64,000 nt of DNA from an uncultured Planctomycetota bacterium (lineage in GTDB: Bacteria; Planctomycetota; PLA2; JAEUHO01): contig CAVVXN010000004.1 in assembly GCA_963752285.1 (NCBI GenBank), positions 128,001 through 192,000 on the forward strand, given 5' to 3'. Numbering within the stretch: position 1 is the first letter of the stretch; each line of letters begins with the position of its first letter. The notes beneath the pieces are model-generated. The model worked only from the letters and a program-made list of their open reading frames with translations. It made no database searches and was not told where the DNA came from. This document shows positions 9,714-24,949 of the stretch, in pieces. Both the position numbers and the translations under genes were made by a program.

Positions 9714-10325
9714 TCAGTCGGTGTGGCCCCCGATCCGCGCGCCCGCGGCGCCGGCGGCGGGGGCGCCGGGGCGCTCCGAGCGCGGGACGTAGGACCGAAG
9801 GTAGTCCGACTTGTCCTGGCCCTCGTAGAACGACCCGCCCACCGCGTAGTCCTGCGCCTCCTGGATCGCGCGCTCGGCGTCCCAGCCGTCGTACTCCATC
9901 CGGAAGAGCGCGCAGAGCAGCCCCGTCCGGCCCACGCCGTGCATGCAGTGCACGAGGACGGGGCGGTTCGCCGGGTCGTCCATGATCGCGAGGAAGCGGC
10001 CGATCGTCTCGTCGTCGGGCACCTGGCCCGACGGGAGCTCCACGTAGCGCGCGCCGTGACGTTCGGCGACCGCGCGGTCCGCCGGCACGTCCGTGTGCCG
10101 CATGTTCACGACGGTCTTGATGCCCTTCTCCGTCACCAGCTGATCGAGGCGGTCCTCCGGCAGGGTCGCCGACCGGTAGAGCACGCCCTCGCGTACGGTG
10201 CCGATGCGCCAGAGCACGCGGTCGCGCGCGACGAACGCCACGGTGCCGAGCACGAGGAGGGGAAGGGCGACGGCGACGACGAGACGCAGGGGGGGGCGCC
10301 TCGCGCTGGGGGGCGGCGTGGACAT
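9714..10325 (-). CDS. Membrane-anchored dual-specificity / protein-tyrosine phosphatase
   Basis: C-terminal part of ORF 9714..13112; TM segment, LYRS, P-loop VHCMHGVGRTG (CX5R). Confidence 0.88.
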   Translation of the reverse strand: MSTPPPSARRPPLRLVVAVALPLLVLGTVAFVARDRVLWRIGTVREGVLYRSATLPEDRLDQLVTEKGIKTVVNMRHTDVPADRAVAERHGARYVELPSGQVPDDETIGRFLAIMDDPANRPVLVHCMHGVGRTGLLCALFRMEYDGWDAERAIQEAQDYAVGGSFYEGQDKSDYLRSYVPRSERPGAPAAGAAGARIGGHTD

Positions 10326-10405: not shown

Positions 10406-13105
10406 TCAGCGTGCCGCCACCCCGGCGGTCGCGGGCGCGACCGGCTCGAATCGTCCCTGGAAGAACCGGAGCTTCTTCGGCTCGTACGTGAACCGGAGTC
10501 CCCGGATCTCGGCGCGGCGCTCGTACACGCGGATGATGCCCTCGGCGACCGCGCGCATGTGGTCGTTCGTGTAGACGCGACGCGGGATGGTCAGGCGCAC
10601 GAGCTCGAGCTGCGGTCGGTAGTTCTCGCCCGTCGAGGGATCGCGGCCCTTCGACACGTTGCCCCGCTCCATCGCGCGCACGCCCGTCTCGACGTAGATC
10701 TCCGCCGCCAGCCGCTGCGCCGGGTACTCGTCCTGGTCCACGTGCGGCAGGAACCGGCGCGCGTCGAGGAAGATCGCGTGCGAGCCCGAGGGCCTGACGA
10801 TCGGCACGCCGGCCTCCTCGAGGAGCTGGCCGAGGAACGCCGTCTGGCGGATCCGCGCGCGGATGTAGCGGTCGTCGAGCATCTCCCGCACGCCCTGGGC
10901 GATCGCCGCGAGGTCGGCCGCGGGCAGCCCGCCGTCGGTGACGTTTCCCTCGTACACGCGGAGCATCTCCTCGGCCTTCGCGGCGAGGGCCGCGTCGTCG
11001 CGGAAGGCGAGGATCCCGCCCATGTTGATGAGGAAGTCCTTCTTGCCCGAGACCGTGCATCCGTCGCCGTAGAGCATCATCTCGCCGAGGATGTCCTTCA
11101 CCGGAACGTTCGCGTACCGCGGGTCGTGGAGCTGGATCATGCACGCGTTCTCGGCGACGCGGGTCGAGTCGAAGTAGACCCGGATCCCGTGGCGCTGACA
11201 GAGCGCGTGGACCTCGCGCATGTTGTCCATGCTGACCGGCTGGCCGCCGGCCATGTTCACGGAGTGCTCGAAGGAGACGTACGCGACGTCGTCCGCGCCG
11301 TGTTCCGCGATCACCCTCTCGAGCTTCTCGAGGTCGATGTCGCCCTTCCACCGGTACGAGCTCTCCGGGTCGTGCGCCTGATCCACGATCACGTCGGCGA
11401 ACACGCCGCCGGCGAGCTCCTGGTGGAGCTTCGTCGTCGTGAAGTACATGTTGCCGGGGACCACCTGGCCCGGCCGGATCGCGATCTGGCTCAGGATGTG
11501 CTCGGCCGCGCGCCCCTGGTGGGTGGGGAGGATGTGCTGGTAGCCGAACACGTCGCGGAGGACCTCGACCAGGTTCCAGTACTCCTCGGTGGCGGAGGAG
11601 GCCGGGCGCGCGCGTTCGTAGGCGGCCCACTGCTCGGTGCTCATCGCCGCGGTGCCCGAGTCGGTCAGGAGGTCGATCGTCACGTCCGCGCTGCGCAGCA
11701 GGAACGTGTTGTAGCCGGCCTTCTCGATCGCGCGGCGCCGCTCGTCGCGCGTGAGGTGGCCGACGTACTCGATGGTGTGGATCAGGAACGGCGAGCAGTC
11801 GAACGTCCACGTGTCGAGGTTCGGGATGATCCACCGGTATCGCATCTGGTCGCGCCAGCGGCACTCGCCGCCGGGCTCGAGCGGGGGGATCCGGTCGCGC
11901 TGGCGGTACAGGTCGATGATCGCGTCGGCGACCTGGTCGAGCTGCGCGTTCGTCATCGCCAGTCGCGGGATCTGCACCGGGAGGATCGCGTCCCGGTCGA
12001 GCATGCCCTGCGCGACCGCGCGCACGCCCGACGTGAGGTAGAGCGCGCAGGAGATCGTGTCCTTCCGGTGCTTCTTCACGTGGGGGAGGAACTGGTCGGC
12101 GAGCAGGTACGCGCCGTCGCAGCCGCGGTCCAGGGGCACGCGGCCGGCGCGCAGGCGCTCCGTGAACCGCTCCGCCTGGTGCATGACCCAGTGCGCCTCG
12201 GCCTCGTTCGTCATCTCCCGGAGGCCGCGGGCGAGCACCTCCATGGTCCGGCCGGCCATCCCGCCGTACGTGTGCAGGCCCTCGTACACCACCACCTCGT
12301 TCATGAATCGCTCGAACGTCGCCTCGTCGTTCGTGGCCAGGAGCGCGCCGACGTTGCTCCGCGCGCACTGCGCGCCGTCTACCTGGAGGACGTCCGCGAG
12401 CGAGGCCATCTCCTTCACGATCTCGGCGACGGTCTGGCCCTGCTGGCCCGCCTCGTGACGTTGCACGTACCAGGCGTTCTCGACGATGCGCGAGCCGTCG
12501 AGGACGAGGGGGAGGCCGTAGCGCCGGGCGAGGGCGCGGGTGGCGCGCAGGTTCTCGATCGAGATCGGGTGGTGCGCATCCGCGAACGTCTCGACGTACA
12601 CGAGCGCGTCCTTGCCGTCCTGGACCTCGTCTTCGAGGCGTAGGAGGTCGATGTTGCCCGTGAACACGGGCTCCCTGCGGTCGCGGATGTCGGGGACGCT
12701 CAGGCCCCGGGGCGTCAAGACGTCCCGGATCACGAGGGCGTTGCTGGGGAACGAGCTCCCCTCGGGCACCATGGTGGCGACCACCAGCTTGATGCAGCCG
12801 AGGAGGTTGTGGGTCGGACAGACGTGCTGGTGGCCGAGCACGTCCGCGACCGCGCTCTCGAGCGCCTCGAAGTTGCGCGCGCCCGCGTACGCCTCGTCGC
12901 CGACGAGGAGCCCCGCGAGCTGCTCCTGGCTCACTGCGCTGCTGCCCCACGACACCATGTCGAAGGTCGTCTGGCGCGGCACCAGGTTCAGCACGTTGAA
13001 CCGGGCGGCGATCAGGTTCTTCTTGCGCTGCTCGACGGACGGGAAGTCCGTGCGGAGGACGGTCTTGATCTTGTGGGGCTCGTGGACCGGCTTCGTGGGG
13101 GCCAT
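10406..13105 (-). CDS. Tandem two-domain tyrosine phenol-lyase / tryptophanase family protein (899 aa)
   Basis: Two beta-eliminating lyase units. C-half has DLLTDSGT, THQGRAAE, NMYFTTT, SGKKD, RLTIPRRVY, LRFF; N-half has GDEAYAG and EGLHTYGG. Confidence 0.92.
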   Translation of the reverse strand: MAPTKPVHEPHKIKTVLRTDFPSVEQRKKNLIAARFNVLNLVPRQTTFDMVSWGSSAVSQEQLAGLLVGDEAYAGARNFEALESAVADVLGHQHVCPTHNLLGCIKLVVATMVPEGSSFPSNALVIRDVLTPRGLSVPDIRDRREPVFTGNIDLLRLEDEVQDGKDALVYVETFADAHHPISIENLRATRALARRYGLPLVLDGSRIVENAWYVQRHEAGQQGQTVAEIVKEMASLADVLQVDGAQCARSNVGALLATNDEATFERFMNEVVVYEGLHTYGGMAGRTMEVLARGLREMTNEAEAHWVMHQAERFTERLRAGRVPLDRGCDGAYLLADQFLPHVKKHRKDTISCALYLTSGVRAVAQGMLDRDAILPVQIPRLAMTNAQLDQVADAIIDLYRQRDRIPPLEPGGECRWRDQMRYRWIIPNLDTWTFDCSPFLIHTIEYVGHLTRDERRRAIEKAGYNTFLLRSADVTIDLLTDSGTAAMSTEQWAAYERARPASSATEEYWNLVEVLRDVFGYQHILPTHQGRAAEHILSQIAIRPGQVVPGNMYFTTTKLHQELAGGVFADVIVDQAHDPESSYRWKGDIDLEKLERVIAEHGADDVAYVSFEHSVNMAGGQPVSMDNMREVHALCQRHGIRVYFDSTRVAENACMIQLHDPRYANVPVKDILGEMMLYGDGCTVSGKKDFLINMGGILAFRDDAALAAKAEEMLRVYEGNVTDGGLPAADLAAIAQGVREMLDDRYIRARIRQTAFLGQLLEEAGVPIVRPSGSHAIFLDARRFLPHVDQDEYPAQRLAAEIYVETGVRAMERGNVSKGRDPSTGENYRPQLELVRLTIPRRVYTNDHMRAVAEGIIRVYERRAEIRGLRFTYEPKKLRFFQGRFEPVAPATAGVAAR

Positions 13106-13214: not shown

Positions 13215-13763
13215 CTACCGGTCCCCGCCCTCCTTCTGGAGCCGCTCGATCTGCTTCGCGAGGGCCGCGCCGTGGTGGATCACGTCCACCTGCTCGTCCA
13301 CGTAACGCACGACGCCGTCGGGGTCCACGACGAACGTCACGCGCTTCGCGTATCGGCCTCCGGGGGCCAGCACGCCGTACTTCGTCGCGACGCTCCCGTC
13401 GGCGTCCGAGAGCACGGGATACGCCAGGTGCTGCTCGTCGGCGAACTTCTTCTGGGCGGCGACGTCGTCGAGGCTCACGGCCAGGACCGTCGCGTCGAGC
13501 TTGGTGAGATCGTCCGCTGCGTCCCGCAGCGCGCAGACCTCGCGCGTTCACCCCGGTGTCGAGGCCTTCGGGAAGAACGCGACGATCGTCCACTTCCCGT
13601 GCCCCGCCTCGGAGCGGCGGACGGCGTGGCCCGACGGGTCGTTGAGACGGAAGTCCGGCGCCTGCTGACCCACCTCCGGACCGGTCGCGGCGTCGTCCCC
13701 CGACGCGAGCGCGACCCCCGCGGCGACGACGGCCGCGGCGATGCCCAGTGCCCATCCTCTCAT
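13215..13763 (-). CDS. Exported BCP/PrxQ peroxiredoxin with probable selenocysteine (UGA at 13550-13548)
   Basis: ORFs 13548..13823 and 13215..13478 are one frame: signal peptide, APDFRL, FFPKASTPG-UGA-TREVCALRD, KRVTFVVDPDGVVR. Confidence 0.88.
13512..13547 (-). promoter_or_regulatory. Bacterial SECIS-like hairpin
   Basis: 3' of the UGA: GTC-tgcg-CGCTGCG-GGA-CGCAGCG-GAC, with a G-starting apical loop about 23 nt after the UGA. Confidence 0.7.
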
Positions 13764-13821
13764 CGAGAACCCTCCTCGGAGTGGCGAACGGGCCGTATCG
13801 TAGCCGCCGCGGAGGGACCTC

Positions 13822-14661
13822 ATGGCACGCGCGACGACCTCGGTGGGGCTCCTGGTCCTCGGCCTCCTCGCGTCGGCCGCCTCGGCGCGCGCGGACGACG
13901 CGGCGCTCGGGGCGCCGCCGTTCCCCCACGTGCGCGCGGAGGGCTACGTGCGCGTCGGTGCGACCTCGGGTTTCCTCCAGACCCCGAAGGGCGGCCAGCC
14001 CGGAACGACCACCGAGCGCCGCCCGGCGCTCGACGAGATCGGCGCGGACCTCGGCGAGGAGATCGGCGTCCGAGCGGAGACGGCCTGGCGGCGTCACGAG
14101 GTGCACCTGGACCTCGCCCTGCTCCTCCTCGGCGGATCCGACAAGCTCCGCGACGGGTTCGTGTCGCAGGGCGCCACCTTTGGCGCGGGCACGTCGATCG
14201 ACTCGTCGTCCTGGATCGGACGCTACCGCCTCGGCTACGCGTACCGGTTCGACCTCCCGCTCGGCCGGGCGGGCTGTCTCGTCGTGCGCCCCGGCGCGAG
14301 CCTCGAGGGCCTCCACGTGCACGACCGGCTGACGGGCGAGGGCGGCGCGAGCGTGAGGCGCACGTATCTCCACGTCGCCCCCGCGCTCGACCTTCGCGTC
14401 GGATGGCGACCGGCGGCCGTGCCGCGCGTCTTCCTCGAGGCCGGCGCGTCCCAGACGCTGTCGTTCCTCTACTCGGACGCGAGCCGGATGAACACGTTCG
14501 AGTCCACGCTCCGCGTCGGCTGCGACCTCTCGTCGCGTACGAGCCTGTACGTCGAGACGGGGTTTCGCCGGAGCGACTGGCGCGACGCGCAGACGGTACC
14601 GAACCACGTCCACGTGACCTTCGGCCCCTGGTTCGGGGTGGGGTTCACGTACCGATTCTGA
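13822..14661 (+). CDS. Putative outer-membrane beta-barrel protein
   Basis: Signal peptide (ASARA), amphipathic strands, C-terminal GVGFTYRF beta-signal. Confidence 0.7.
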   Translation: MARATTSVGLLVLGLLASAASARADDAALGAPPFPHVRAEGYVRVGATSGFLQTPKGGQPGTTTERRPALDEIGADLGEEIGVRAETAWRRHEVHLDLALLLLGGSDKLRDGFVSQGATFGAGTSIDSSSWIGRYRLGYAYRFDLPLGRAGCLVVRPGASLEGLHVHDRLTGEGGASVRRTYLHVAPALDLRVGWRPAAVPRVFLEAGASQTLSFLYSDASRMNTFESTLRVGCDLSSRTSLYVETGFRRSDWRDAQTVPNHVHVTFGPWFGVGFTYRF

Positions 14662-21872: not shown

Positions 21873-23030
21873 TCAGGCCGGGCTCGGCTCGGCGCGGACC
21901 ACGTGGCGATAGAGCGTGTCGCGCTCGACCGCGGTGCGTCCCGTCTCCGCGATCAGGCGACGGAGCTCGCCGACGCTCAGCTCCTGTGGGCTCGTGGCGC
22001 CCGCCATGTGGACGATCCGCTCCTCCACGACGGTGCCGTCGATGTCGTCGGCGCCGAACGAGAGGGCCACCTGGGCGAGCTTGGGCCCGAGCATGATCCA
22101 GTAGGCCTTCAGGTGCTCGACGTTGTCGAGCAGGAGACGCGAGACCGCCATCACGCGGAGGTCGGTCTTCCCGGTGGGTCCCGGGAGGTGGGAGAGCGCC
22201 GTGTGCTCGGGGTGGAACGCGAGGGGGATGAACGTCTGGAAGCCGCCCGTCTCGTCCTGCAGCGCGCGGAGCCGGAGTACGTGGTCCACGCGGTGTTCGT
22301 CCTCCTCGATGTGCCCGTAGAGCATCGTCGCGTTCGTGCGGATGCCCATGCCGTGGGCCGTGCGGTGGATCTCGATCCACTCGTCCGCGTCGCACTTGTT
22401 GTCGCAGATCTGCTCGCGGACCTCGGGGTGGAAGATCTCCGCGCCGCCGCCCGGCATGCTGTCGAGCCCCGCCGCGACGAGCCGCTCGAGGACCTCTCGG
22501 TGCGTGAGGCCCTCCGAGCCGGCGAAGTACGCGATCTCGACGGCCGTGAGGGCCTTCAGGTGGATCTCGGGGAAGCGCTCCTTGAGGCCCCGGAAGCACG
22601 CCTCGTACCAGGCCAGGTCGTAGTGGGGGTGCAGCCCCGCCACGATGTGGATCTCGGTCGCGCCGTGCTCCGCGCACTCGGCGGCGCGGCGCCACACCTC
22701 GTCGTGGGTCATCTCCCACGTCAGCGGGTTGCTGCCCTTGATGCCGAAGGCGCAGAACGTGCAGCCCTGCATGCAGATGTTCGTGGGGTTGATGTGGCGG
22801 TTGACGTTGTAATAGACGACGTCGCCGTGCCGCTCGCGCCGAACCCAGTCCGCCAGCCGACCCACGGCGAGCAGGTCGGGGTGCGCGTAGAGCCGAAGGC
22901 CGTCGTCGTGGTCGAGGCGCTCGTGGCACACGACCTTCGCGCCGAGGTCGGCGAGGTCGTCGGGGAGCGACAGGGCGGCGAGCGCCTCGGCCTCGTCCAC
23001 GGGCGCGCGGGGGGAATGCACCTGGCTCAC
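21873..23030 (-). CDS. mqnE: Aminofutalosine synthase (radical SAM)
   Basis: NRHINPTNICMQGCTFCAF, EIHIVAGLHP, HLKALTAVEI, HLKAYWIM. Confidence 0.9.
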   Translation of the reverse strand: MSQVHSPRAPVDEAEALAALSLPDDLADLGAKVVCHERLDHDDGLRLYAHPDLLAVGRLADWVRRERHGDVVYYNVNRHINPTNICMQGCTFCAFGIKGSNPLTWEMTHDEVWRRAAECAEHGATEIHIVAGLHPHYDLAWYEACFRGLKERFPEIHLKALTAVEIAYFAGSEGLTHREVLERLVAAGLDSMPGGGAEIFHPEVREQICDNKCDADEWIEIHRTAHGMGIRTNATMLYGHIEEDEHRVDHVLRLRALQDETGGFQTFIPLAFHPEHTALSHLPGPTGKTDLRVMAVSRLLLDNVEHLKAYWIMLGPKLAQVALSFGADDIDGTVVEERIVHMAGATSPQELSVGELRRLIAETGRTAVERDTLYRHVVRAEPSPA

Positions 23031-24136
23031 AGGACCACCTCCGCCTCGGGCTCGAGGACCTCGTAGAAGGTCGTGCGCCGCCGGGGTTCGTAGCCGGCGT
23101 CCCGGATCAGGGCCTCGATGCGCTCGATCGGCATGCAGAACGACGCCCCGGCCGCCGAGACGACGTTCTCCTCCATCATCGTGCCGCCGAGGTCGTCGGC
23201 ACCGAACTCGAGGGAGACCTGACCGATCTTCGGGCCCTGCGTCACCCACGAGCCCTGCACGTGGGGGAAGTTGTCGAGCACGAGGCGCGCGACCGCGAGC
23301 GTCCTGAGGTAGTCGTAGCCGCCGCTCATGTGGGGGACGCGCTTCTCGAGCTTCGTGTGGGGCGCCTGGTACGTCCACGGGATGAACGCCGTGAAGCCCC
23401 CCGTGCGGTCCTGGAGCTCGCGGAGGCGCAGGAGGTGCTCGACGCGGTCCTCGAGGGTCTCCACGTGGCCGAACATCATGGTCGCGCTGCTCTTCAGGCC
23501 GAGGGCGTGCGCGTCCTCCATGACCCCGAGCCACTCGTCCGTCGTGGCCTTGAGCGCGGCGATCTTCTTCCGGACGCCGTCCACGAGGATCTCGGCCCCG
23601 CCGCCGGGGATCGAGCCGAGGCCGGCCTCGCACAAGCGGCGGATGACCTCCGTCCGCGGCATGTCCCAGGTCTTCGAGAAGAAGGTGATCTCGGGGGGCG
23701 AGAAGCCGTGCACGTTGATGCGCGGGAAGCGCTCCCGCACGTACCGGAGGAGGCCCTCGTAGTACTCGATGCCGAGCTCGGGGTTGTGTCCGCCCTGGAG
23801 CAGGACCTGGCGGCCGTCCACCCGGTCGAGCTCCTCGAGCCGGGCGCCGATCTCCTCGTACGACTGGGTGTAGCCCTCGGCGTGCCCCGGCGGCCGGTAG
23901 AAGGCGCAGAACGCGCAGTACGTCACGCAGACGTTCGAGTAGTTGACGTTCCGATCGACGATGTACGTCACCCGACGGGCGGGGTTCTTCCGCCACCGCG
24001 CGGCGGCCGCGAGCGACCCGAGCTCCAGGAGGTCGGCGTCCCGGAGCAGCACGAGCCCGTCCTCGGCGGACAGGCGCTCCCCGCCGCGCGCCCTCGCGAG
24101 GGCGGAGCGGAGCCGGGGCGTCGAGGCGTCGGGCAT
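23027..24136 (-). CDS. mqnC: Cyclic dehypoxanthinyl futalosine synthase (radical SAM)
   Basis: VTYIVDRNVNYSNVCVTYCAFCAFYR, LLQGGHNP, QGSWVTQG, MMEENVVSAAG. Confidence 0.92.
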   Translation of the reverse strand: MPDASTPRLRSALARARGGERLSAEDGLVLLRDADLLELGSLAAAARWRKNPARRVTYIVDRNVNYSNVCVTYCAFCAFYRPPGHAEGYTQSYEEIGARLEELDRVDGRQVLLQGGHNPELGIEYYEGLLRYVRERFPRINVHGFSPPEITFFSKTWDMPRTEVIRRLCEAGLGSIPGGGAEILVDGVRKKIAALKATTDEWLGVMEDAHALGLKSSATMMFGHVETLEDRVEHLLRLRELQDRTGGFTAFIPWTYQAPHTKLEKRVPHMSGGYDYLRTLAVARLVLDNFPHVQGSWVTQGPKIGQVSLEFGADDLGGTMMEENVVSAAGASFCMPIERIEALIRDAGYEPRRRTTFYEVLEPEAEVVL

Positions 24137-24292
24137 GGAGACCTCCTCGGGGTCCCGGGAAGTGTAGGAGGCCCGGCCGCCCCCGGCGAATCCGAGCCCT
24201 GTCCGTCGCCCGGCGCGCCCCCGCTCGGACCTTTGCCCCGGGTCGTCGCGTCCCCCACCCAACCGCTGGATCGCGGGCAGACTCTCGCTCCC

Positions 24293-24949
24293 ATGGACCT
24301 GGCCATCACCACCCTCGTCGTCGGGCCGTTCCAGCAGAACTGCCGGCTCGTCGCGGACCGCGCGAGCGGCCAGGCCGTCCTCGTGGACCCCGGCGACGAG
24401 CCCGACCGCATCCTCGAGGCCGTGAAGGAGAGCGGGGCGCTCGTCCGCTACGTCCTCGCGACCCACGCCCACCTCGACCACGTGGGCGCGGTCGCGCCGG
24501 TCCAGCGGGCGCTGAAGGCGCCCTTCGCGCTCCACGCGGCCGACCTCCCCCTGCTCCAGGCCCTCCCCGAGCACGGACGGATGTTCGGGATCGGGGGCCT
24601 CGAGGTTCCGGTGGTGGGCATGGACCTCGCGCTCACGCCGGAGATCCCGTTCGCGGACGGGCACATCCGCGTGCTCGCCACGCCCGGGCACACGCCCGGC
24701 GGGGTGACGTTCCTCTTCGGCGCGGACGGGTTCTTCGGCGACACCCTCTTCCGGGGATCCGTGGGGCGCACGGACCTCGGGGGCGACGCGCAGGCGTACG
24801 CGAAGACGCTCCGGGACGTCGTGCTCGCGCTCCCCGACGAGACCGTCGTCTACTCCGGCCACGGTCCGGACAGCACGATCGGGGAGGAGCGCCTGCGGAA
24901 CCCGTTCCTCAACGGAGAGGTCCGGATCGACGACCCGGCCTTCCTCTGA
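24293..24949 (+). CDS. MBL-fold metallo-hydrolase (glyoxalase II-like)
   Basis: THAHLDHVG, TPGHTPG, GDTLF, GHG. Confidence 0.9.
   Translation: MDLAITTLVVGPFQQNCRLVADRASGQAVLVDPGDEPDRILEAVKESGALVRYVLATHAHLDHVGAVAPVQRALKAPFALHAADLPLLQALPEHGRMFGIGGLEVPVVGMDLALTPEIPFADGHIRVLATPGHTPGGVTFLFGADGFFGDTLFRGSVGRTDLGGDAQAYAKTLRDVVLALPDETVVYSGHGPDSTIGEERLRNPFLNGEVRIDDPAFL

Follow-up and report, generated by a model that had tools for sequence, protein, structure and literature searches.

The 899-residue protein P0001, encoded within the 64,000-nucleotide stretch of uncultured Planctomycetota DNA analysed here (the window), is quite probably a tyrosine phenol-lyase (TPL)-type PLP enzyme that carries its catalytic subunit pair in one chain and forms one composite active site. 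Fold-type-I PLP enzymes are classically symmetric dimers with two shared sites. The features of the gene are listed below in window coordinates, with equivalents in TPL numbering and frequencies from a typed sample of 237 two-unit proteins, which are related cluster representatives and not independent samples; the main group comprises the 220 of these with the full reciprocal pattern, that is, with the same-chain residues in the C-unit and the partner-donated equivalents of Glu69, Tyr71 and Tyr291 in the N-unit.

10406..13105, minus strand: whole gene of P0001, a two-unit beta-eliminating lyase of 899 aa (ATG start; TGA stop at 10406-10408)
11885..13105, minus strand: N-unit, residues 1-407, degenerate TPL-like, without the PLP lysine (alignment to TPL 1c7g)
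12881..12901, minus strand: N-unit GDEAYAG loop, predicted to be lent to the partner unit; Glu71 and Tyr73 correspond to TPL Glu69 and Tyr71
12365..12379, minus strand: N-unit DGAQC, where the SGKKD PLP-lysine motif would stand
12260..12283, minus strand: N-unit EGLHTYGG loop, likewise predicted to be lent; Leu277 and Tyr280 correspond to TPL Met288 and Tyr291
11804..11884, minus strand: junction of residues 408-434, short, with W417, R418, D419 and Y423 conserved at 90% or above
10409..11803, minus strand: C-unit, residues 435-899, a complete TPL-type catalytic unit lacking both partner-donated tyrosines (alignment to TPL 1c7g)
11594..11617, minus strand: C-unit ERARPASS, where the DEAY loop would stand; Glu69 is replaced by Pro501 and Tyr71 by Ser503 (Tyr in 0/220 of the main group)
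11432..11452, minus strand: C-unit NMYFTTT, TPL-type, with the Phe123 and Thr124 equivalents (220/220)
11036..11050, minus strand: C-unit SGKKD with the PLP lysine, Lys689, equivalent to TPL Lys257 (Lys in 237/237)
10928..10951, minus strand: C-unit EGNVTDGG, where EGxxxYGG would stand; Tyr291 is replaced by Asp724 (Tyr in 0/237)
10664..10672, minus strand: C-unit Met812-Glu813-Arg814, with TPL Met379 and Arg381 (Arg 220/220, Met 218/220)
10460..10471, minus strand: C-unit LRFF, equivalent to TPL Phe448 and Phe449 (220/220)

Two unlike lyase units in one chain

Pfam model PF01212 matched P0001 in two stretches (333.9 bits against a gathering cut-off of 27), placing it in the Beta_elim_lyase family, and each half aligned with TPL 1c7g over its full length, residues 9-407 with TPL residues 6-435 (E 3e-56) and residues 435-887 with TPL residues 3-454 (E 3e-166). 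These matches corroborate a reading of the DNA made from the sequence alone, which had recognized two lyase units in the 899-aa open reading frame, and each motif that it named was found in its place when the coordinates were checked. The N- and C-units share just 27% identity (E 2e-41), so the duplication that gave rise to them is old rather than recent. Compared with two 456-aa units joined head to tail, the junction of P0001 is longer by 4 residues, an excess found in 165 of 233 relatives and ranging from +4 to +16 in 231 of the 233.

At the position of TPL Lys257, the C-unit contained Lys689 and the N-unit Gln246. The further same-chain motifs DLLTDSGT, THQGRA and RLTIPRR were intact in the C-unit of P0001, and throughout the main group (220/220) the C-unit kept the equivalents of T49, G52, Q98, R100, F123, T124, N185, D214, R217, S254, K256, K257, N262, R381, R404, F448 and F449, with that of M379 kept in 218/220. 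We take the roles of the T49, G52, E69, Q98, R100, F123, N185, D214, R217, S254, K256, N262 and R404 equivalents to be those described in the TPL structural literature. The Tyr71 and Tyr291 of TPL have their counterparts in the N-unit alone (Tyr73 and Tyr280).

In the N-unit of P0001, other same-chain motifs had degenerated to DMVSWGS, THNLLG, NALVIRD and PVQIPRL, with K257 replaced by Gln246, R100 by Leu102, S254 by Asp243 and R404 by Pro376, and with the positions of T124 and N185 deleted in the alignment to TPL. The lysine position was occupied in the main group by Gln (169/220) or Glu (42/220), and by Lys in none of the 220. The DEAY-loop Tyr of the N-unit was present in all 237 two-unit proteins and the Glu of this loop in 219 of the 220 main-group members, the loop being kept in 120/120 close relatives; the YGG-loop Tyr was likewise invariant (237/237), accompanied by Leu at the M288 position in 220/220 of the main group.

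Proposed composite site, pairing of the units and the dead pocket

That the Tyr of DEAY and the Tyr of YGG come from the partner subunit, as the sequence-only reading had noted, is stated for E. coli tryptophanase, in which the PLP phosphate accepts hydrogen bonds from Tyr74 and Tyr307 of the adjacent subunit and the Y74F variant has negligible activity (PMC2770544, excerpt). Tryptophanase Phe304 corresponds to TPL Met288 (PMC5805759, excerpt), and therefore Tyr307 corresponds to TPL Tyr291. Given that the C-units have lost both partner-lent tyrosines, C:C pairs would be without either.

That N-units pair with C-units, that each chain binds a single PLP and that L-tyrosine is the substrate are inferences from the sequences. 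In the proposed mechanism, the C-unit would bind PLP at Lys689 and supply all the same-chain residues that bind the cofactor, K+, the carboxylate and the phenol, while the N-unit, as a pseudo-enzyme unit unable to hold PLP in the usual way, would reach across the catalytic interface and complete the C-unit site with Glu71, Tyr73 and the loop of Leu277 and Tyr280. A chain would thus hold a single functional site beside a dead pocket, two chains would probably assemble as in the canonical tetramer, and the predicted reaction converts L-tyrosine to phenol, pyruvate and ammonia.

Pairing within one chain, which the sequence-only reading had proposed, and pairing between two chains are equally possible, because the junction adds only ~4 residues and the N-terminal arms of TPL interlock between two catalytic dimers (PMC10170061, excerpt). 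A swapped obligate dimer, in which each C-unit site takes its missing residues from the N-unit of a different chain in the same one-site design, is a realistic prospect given this short junction and these arms; residues 12-17 of tryptophanase, moreover, join a beta-sheet with the subunit that is not the catalytic partner (PMC2770544, excerpt), and in view of such arm contacts the start of the C-unit may sit on the non-catalytic neighbour, but the data favour neither topology.

The earlier reading had also suggested a regulatory or ligand-binding role for the dead pocket of the N-unit, which we regard as improbable. The former PLP pocket, retained as a cavity with the conserved residues Asn100, Asp203, Arg206, Asp243 and Gln246 in its lining, would then bind a metabolite and control the neighbouring catalytic site, an equally doubtful proposal that, if true, would make P0001 a lyase whose own dead active site has turned into an internal allosteric sensor. 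Several pocket positions were retained in the main group (the D214 equivalent in 214/220, Asn at Q98 in 177, the R217 equivalent in 176 and Asp at S254 in 171), but apart from the D214 equivalent their conservation (~0.74-0.80) modestly exceeds the regional averages of the N-unit (0.60 and 0.68), and the segments around T124 and N185 are missing. In addition, the parts that would close the pocket over a ligand were the least conserved of the N-unit, with 0.50 for the small domain (346-410) and 0.19 for the C-tail, which disfavours the suggestion.

Conservation and spread of the two-unit form

The division of labour between the units and one composite TPL-type site per chain, both proposed in the sequence-only reading, are supported in silico by the pattern in 220/237 proteins and by mirrored conservation. 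What is observed directly is the pattern of residues and how well it is conserved, the mirror-image constraint, and the joint divergence of the N- and C-units. Conservation was higher in the N-unit than in the C-unit for three regions only, the N-terminal arm (0.67 against 0.49), the loop region of DEAY (0.82 against 0.64) and that of YGG (0.83 against 0.67); outside these regions the N-unit was always the less conserved, and it evolved faster in 129/129 comparisons. The N and C subtrees were congruent, each unit group forming one side of a branch (SH-aLRT 97-99), and the polarity, with a degenerate N-unit and a catalytic C-unit, was identical in 237/237. The expectation that homologues conserve the reciprocal loss held for the main group and not universally, since the N-unit lysine was retained in 17/237 and the C-unit Tyr71 in 9/237; because of the former, one site per chain is not valid for every fused lyase. 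These 17 less degenerate relatives apparently preserve a stepwise record of the passage from a symmetric dimer to an obligate asymmetric dimer; P0134 and P0133 are examples of proteins that keep the lysine.

Another 119 cluster representatives, 67-82% identical, share this architecture, as do 11 more distant ones. Among the best 80 loci from named genome records, 23 carried the two-unit form (21 complete and 2 partial) across six phyla, and the layout is common in uncultured bacteria. We attach a vanishingly small probability to the fusion being an artefact, whether through misassembly, the erroneous merging of two genes or pseudogene decay, as a single open frame and a conserved junction recur in 237 representatives, the 21 complete and 2 partial loci lie in independent assemblies, and the N-unit has long been under constraint. 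Six DNA sequencing runs, each with a small share, and no RNA run were listed as containing this DNA. Contigs from four runs were short and of low depth, and none extended across the junction near 11800, which is a blank for both junction and expression and not evidence of an artefact; misassembly, which the earlier reading had named as something that would overturn it, is effectively refuted by the independent assemblies with the same architecture.

A search for shorter proteins carrying the N-unit found, with the one query used, no split two-gene form and yielded ~45 N-unit-like pieces of 184-461 aa, many of them labelled partial or located on contigs of 1-3 kb. P0131, P0124 and P0129 were rejected as split N-units, as each enters the C-unit and then stops, and so was P0243, which appears frame-shifted. 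Nine loci that looked fused by their span were of the Bacteroidota type, in which intact genes for tryptophanase and TPL lie side by side without being joined (8/9 read). The ESM Atlas returned single-unit TPL and tryptophanase clusters only and contains no model of P0001.

Around the gene, no conserved partner or operon was detected, as tblastn of nine neighbouring proteins against the best 80 loci matched the closest relative (L012) only, and promoter/terminator, Rfam and tRNA scans found nothing nearby. As a separate observation, an upstream peroxiredoxin gene has a conserved in-frame TGA at the catalytic cysteine, and selA is encoded in the genome; the RNA fold downstream of this TGA did not surpass those of shuffled sequences (z -0.33).

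Substrate and relation to known systems

Against TIGR02618, the NCBIfam equivalog for tyrosine phenol-lyase with a cut-off of 720.7 bits, whole P0001 scored 856.8 bits, a sum over two units of which the C-unit alone scored 631.2 and the N-unit alone 231.3, and the stand-alone relative P0135, which has the same EGLHTYGG loop, scored 733 bits, above the cut-off. The tryptophanase equivalogs left whole P0001 below their cut-offs (TIGR02617, 611.4 against 825.8; NF053783, 665.3 against 750), and the C-unit scored 452 and 434 bits with the tryptophanase models against 631 for TPL. Equivalog cut-offs that are passed by adding the scores of two units constitute an annotation blind spot, and enzyme-mining length filters of 400-600 aa drop such two-unit proteins (PMC12980246, excerpt).

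Thr124, Met288, Met379, Arg381 and Phe448 discriminate TPL from tryptophanase (PMC5805759, excerpt), the role of Thr124 in TPL being described in the same paper and in PMC10170061 (excerpts). Four of these five were TPL-type in the C-unit (Thr556, Met812, Arg814 and Phe881), and Leu277 stood at the position of Met288, which the N-unit would supply. The tryptophanase motifs N-x-H-F-D-T-T and L-R-H-F were absent from P0001, which reads NMYFTTT and LRFF; the sequence-only reading had classed both as TPL-type. Met288 apart, the discriminators were TPL-type in 218-220/220. In the tree, the C-units and stand-alone TPL-type proteins grouped in one clade.

These discriminators, the rank of TPL as top equivalog for the C-unit and this grouping argue against a one-site lyase of the family that has a physiological substrate other than L-tyrosine, or that works in the synthetic direction. 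We consider such an enzyme rather unlikely, although another beta-substituted amino acid could serve as substrate, the C-unit alone lies under the TPL cut-off, Leu replaces Met288 in 220/220, and the gene neighbourhood, not being conserved, offers no pathway hint.

P0001 shares with canonical TPL (EC 4.1.99.2; Citrobacter freundii, Erwinia herbicola; PDB 1c7g, 2ez1, 1tpl) the fold and PF01212, a C-unit that aligns end to end, the PLP lysine, the Thr124/Met379/Arg381/Phe448/Phe449 equivalents, the K+ ligands and a site predicted to need partner-unit residues. Canonical TPL assembles identical chains of ~456 aa into a homotetramer whose four sites are equivalent, an arrangement that the P0001 sequence does not match: by contrast, P0001 has two unlike units per chain, one of two possible sites intact and Met288 changed to Leu. 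Tryptophanase (E. coli TnaA, Proteus vulgaris; PDB 2oqx, 1ax4) belongs to the same family as P0001, but its specificity residues Asp137, Phe304, Val394, Ile396 and His463 (PMC5805759, excerpt) differ from those of the C-unit. A canonical gene of the tryptophanase type (L010) is present separately in the genome.

A natural and widespread single-chain form with one site abandoned would offer a test of the role of the second site, of half-of-the-sites behaviour and of which residues truly act across the interface. TPL is an industrial L-DOPA catalyst, and the two-unit form may provide TPL engineering with an asymmetric scaffold in which each half of the site can be mutated without changing the other.

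The P-protein of glycine cleavage (GLDC/GcvP; a ~1000-aa chain or GcvPA plus GcvPB; PDB 4LHC, 1WYT) likewise contains two homologous units of the fold-type-I PLP class, of which the N-terminal unit has Gln in place of the lysine and the C-terminal unit is catalytic (PMC7259800; PMC6522883, excerpts), the same polarity and the same Lys-to-Gln change as in P0001 (Gln246). It differs in belonging to another family, the GcvP models in Pfam having no match to P0001, in catalysing decarboxylation with lipoyl transfer, and in being known also as a split two-gene form, for which the search for N-unit proteins, made with one query, found no counterpart. The earlier statement that no characterized example was known must therefore give way to this analogue (PMC7259800, excerpt); for the family itself, our literature searches turned up no paper describing a two-unit TPL or tryptophanase. 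Judged by its sequence, P0001 qualifies as a single-chain pseudo-dimer of the P-protein type, a likeness of design and not family-level homology. GLDC has been called an unusual exception among fold-type-I enzymes (PMC7259800, excerpt), and the dimer asymmetry proposed for P0001 would be a second case beside it.

A two-unit lyase in a single open frame

The lyase gene lies between two genes on the same strand:

9714-10325, minus strand: membrane-anchored dual-specificity/tyrosine-phosphatase-like gene with an HCMHGVGRTG motif
10406..13105, minus strand: two-unit lyase gene (protein P0001), a single open frame of 899 aa that starts with ATG and stops with TGA
13215-13823, minus strand: AhpC/TSA (Bcp-like) peroxiredoxin gene, directly upstream of the lyase gene

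A GAGG motif lies a few bases 5′ of the lyase ATG, and a Pfam profile search placed Beta_elim_lyase (PF01212) in two stretches of the 899-aa protein. Residues 435-887, in the C-unit, aligned to residues 3-454 of Erwinia herbicola tyrosine phenol-lyase (TPL; 1c7g) with an E value of 3e-166 and no large gaps, and N-unit residues 9-407 aligned to TPL residues 6-435 with an E value of 3e-56, the two halves sharing 27% identity. The two lyase units proposed by the sequence-only reading were thus borne out, and a coordinate check located all the motifs it had quoted where it had placed them.

That reading had also considered a misassembled junction. The fused lyase is real rather than an assembly artefact, as the two-unit architecture recurs in protein searches and at 23 loci. 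Searching 5.8 billion clustered proteins returned 1279 matches, the best 120 of which were all 782-920 aa long with 67-82% identity, and 11 more two-unit proteins, 37-53% identical, came from 1.84 billion 50%-identity representatives. A one-genome-per-species scan yielded 600 confirmed stretches; the best 80 loci included 21 complete and 2 partial two-unit frames, from Gemmatimonadota (8), Acidobacteriota (3), Eiseniibacteriota (3), Pseudomonadota (3), Planctomycetota (2), Myxococcota (2) and records without a phylum (2). None of the public contigs mapped to the lyase gene crossed the junction, which is neutral on the assembly either way. Among 40 relatives searched, 5 carried N-unit-like genes, as did 1 of another 300 genomes from the phylum (E 1e-100 or better); this patchy occurrence, along with an identity of 62-70% to proteins from other phyla, suggests lateral spread.

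Nine loci spanning 2.3-2.8 kb were rejected as fusions, being adjacent, separate, intact tryptophanase and TPL genes in the eight of nine that were read. In these eight (L034, L035, L036, L042, L056, L062, L072 and L079, records mostly labelled Bacteroidota), the TPL gene directly follows the tryptophanase gene in an unfused frame 0-70 bases away.

The source genome (4.64 Mb, 89% complete) yielded no other TPL-type gene, and it carries a canonical stand-alone tryptophanase-type gene (L010, G000:C5:245922-247265, minus strand) with all motifs intact (NTHFDTT, SAKKD, GDESY, TYGG and LRHF). The neighbourhood of the lyase gene is shared by its closest relative, locus L012, only, and a phosphatase-like gene beside the fused gene, here 80 bases downstream, was absent from all 80 related loci. 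The peroxiredoxin has an in-frame TGA (13548-13550) at the peroxidatic cysteine position (FFPKASTPG-TGA-TREVC), its L012 orthologue has a TGA at the identical position (FYPKAATPG-TGA-TREVC), and selA is present in the genome (507 bits, exceeding its cut-off). The protein is probably a selenocysteine peroxiredoxin; the RNA that follows the TGA downstream folded no better than shuffled sequences. Window positions 21873-24862 (minus strand) hold two adjoining radical-SAM ORFs whose C-terminal regions are of CofH/MqnC kind (F420 or futalosine-pathway type).

Reciprocal retention of active-site residues

In E. coli tryptophanase, the Tyr74 and Tyr307 hydroxyl groups form hydrogen bonds to the PLP phosphate carried by the adjacent subunit within the catalytic dimer, and the Y74F variant has negligible activity (PMC2770544). 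TPL Met288 is the equivalent of E. coli Phe304 (PMC5805759), and therefore Tyr307 corresponds to TPL Tyr291 and Tyr74 to TPL Tyr71. In TPL, Tyr71 is the general acid and Arg381 the base, the Schiff base is formed by Lys257, and the phenol hydroxyl is held by Thr124 (PMC10170061), and Thr124, Met288, Met379, Arg381 and Phe448 tell TPL from tryptophanase (PMC5805759).

Using a unit profile built from 14 stand-alone family members, we typed 239 proteins of 840-1000 aa, 237 of which resolved into two units. For T49, G52, E69, Q98, R100, F123, N185, D214, R217, S254, K256, N262 and R404 we assumed the roles assigned from TPL structures, and we took the K+ site to comprise Gly52 and Asn262 of the same chain and Glu69 of the partner. 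All 237 share one polarity, with both tyrosines in the N-unit, the lysine in the C-unit and no Tyr291 in the C-unit. The reciprocal pattern of the sequence-only reading is conserved in full in 220 of the 237, P0001 among them, the N-unit lacking Lys257 and keeping Tyr71 and Tyr291, and the C-unit keeping Lys257 and lacking either tyrosine; it does not extend to the 17 that keep the N-unit lysine, whose C-unit retains Tyr71 without Tyr291 (9/237) or lacks both (8/237).

In the C-units of this main group, 17 same-chain positions are kept in 220/220 and Met379 in 218/220. Their N-units retain both tyrosines in 220/220 and Glu69 in 219/220, with Leu at the Met288 position throughout (220/220). The Lys257 position of the N-unit holds Gln (169/220) or Glu (42/220), Arg100 is replaced by Leu (168/220), Ser254 by Asp (171/220) and Arg404 by Pro (164/220), and the Thr124, Asn185 and Phe448/449 segments are missing from most members. 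A complete predicted K+ site is thus retained only at the site of the C-unit.

The second group (P0133, P0134, P0138, P0272-P0279, P0283-P0285, P0287 and P0288; some labelled cyanobacterial (Pantanalinema, Stenomitos) or Sericytochromatia by their sources) retains in both units the PLP lysine together with most cofactor residues, with specificity residues of neither TPL nor tryptophanase type; these lyases may have two cofactor sites. Four stand-alone proteins of ~450 aa in the TPL-type clade (P0144, P0217, P0244 and P0258) lack both partner-donated tyrosines, P0144 also lacking the lysine motif; they are orphan units, which would require a partner or serve some other function.

Constraint, pairing and history of the two units

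Across the 220 main-group proteins, the N-unit was the better conserved of the two in just three regions and the less conserved in all others.

Conservation per region in 220 main-group proteins (TPL numbering)
N-terminal arm: N-unit 0.67, C-unit 0.49
DEAY loop region, 58-80: N-unit 0.82, C-unit 0.64
YGG loop region, 271-300: N-unit 0.83, C-unit 0.67
Small domain, 346-410: N-unit 0.50, C-unit 0.86
C-tail: N-unit 0.19, C-unit 0.82

Similarity to P0001 was likewise lower in the N-unit in 129/129 aligned relatives (means 0.61 vs 0.73). Such mirrored conservation and N-unit divergence would be expected of an N-unit maintained for its partner-directed loops and its role as dimer partner. They argue against pairing of C-units with C-units, under which nothing would maintain the N-unit tyrosines, yet these are conserved.

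The junction of P0001 has 4 residues more than two 456-aa units joined directly would give, as in 165/233 typed relatives, and the excess is +4 to +16 in 231/233; it is thus short and length-constrained, and contains conserved residues. The N-terminal arms of TPL interlock from one catalytic dimer to the other (PMC10170061). The two units of a chain may therefore be neighbours without being catalytic partners, each site then being built by two chains.

In a tree of 102 units, from which P0136 was excluded for its long N-unit branch, the N-units and C-units of the two groups (four sets) each formed one side of a branch (97-99 SH-aLRT), and the N and C subtrees were congruent branch for branch. 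The C-units shared a clade with stand-alone TPL-type proteins, and all N-units lay on one side of a branch (92), where long N-unit branches may attract one another. A topology with all C-units together was not rejected (p-AU 0.55), so that a single old fusion is compatible with the data. The 17 less degenerate two-unit proteins suggest that fusion was followed by loss of the C-unit Tyr291, then of Tyr71, and then by decay of the N-unit PLP site.

Substrate class and likeness to known systems

All same-chain TPL markers are present in the C-unit, and of the equivalog models that of TPL fits best. On its own, however, the C-unit scored 631.2 bits, short of the 720.7-bit cut-off, and the whole protein passed it (856.8) only because the N-unit adds 231 bits. 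Leu at the Met288 position is shared with the stand-alone P0135, which passes the TPL cut-off at 733 bits. Judged by these residues and scores, P0001 is likely of TPL-type design, and its predicted substrate, a little less confidently, is that of TPL.

No two-unit chain was found among solved structures (26 distinct family sequences matched, the longest 569 aa), nor, in the literature, a description of a two-unit enzyme in the TPL/tryptophanase family. A recent tryptophanase-mining study was restricted to sequences of 400-600 aa, a filter that would discard two-unit proteins (PMC12980246). The two-unit TPL-type protein is a well-supported and, it seems, hitherto undescribed form of a known kind of enzyme, of clear interest for PLP enzymology. 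The sequence-only reading knew of no characterised example, which is right for the TPL/tryptophanase family and fails for the fold: the closest design is the glycine-cleavage P-protein, described as the exception among fold-type-I enzymes, in which a degenerate N-terminal unit with Gln in place of the lysine is joined to a catalytic C-terminal unit (PMC7259800).
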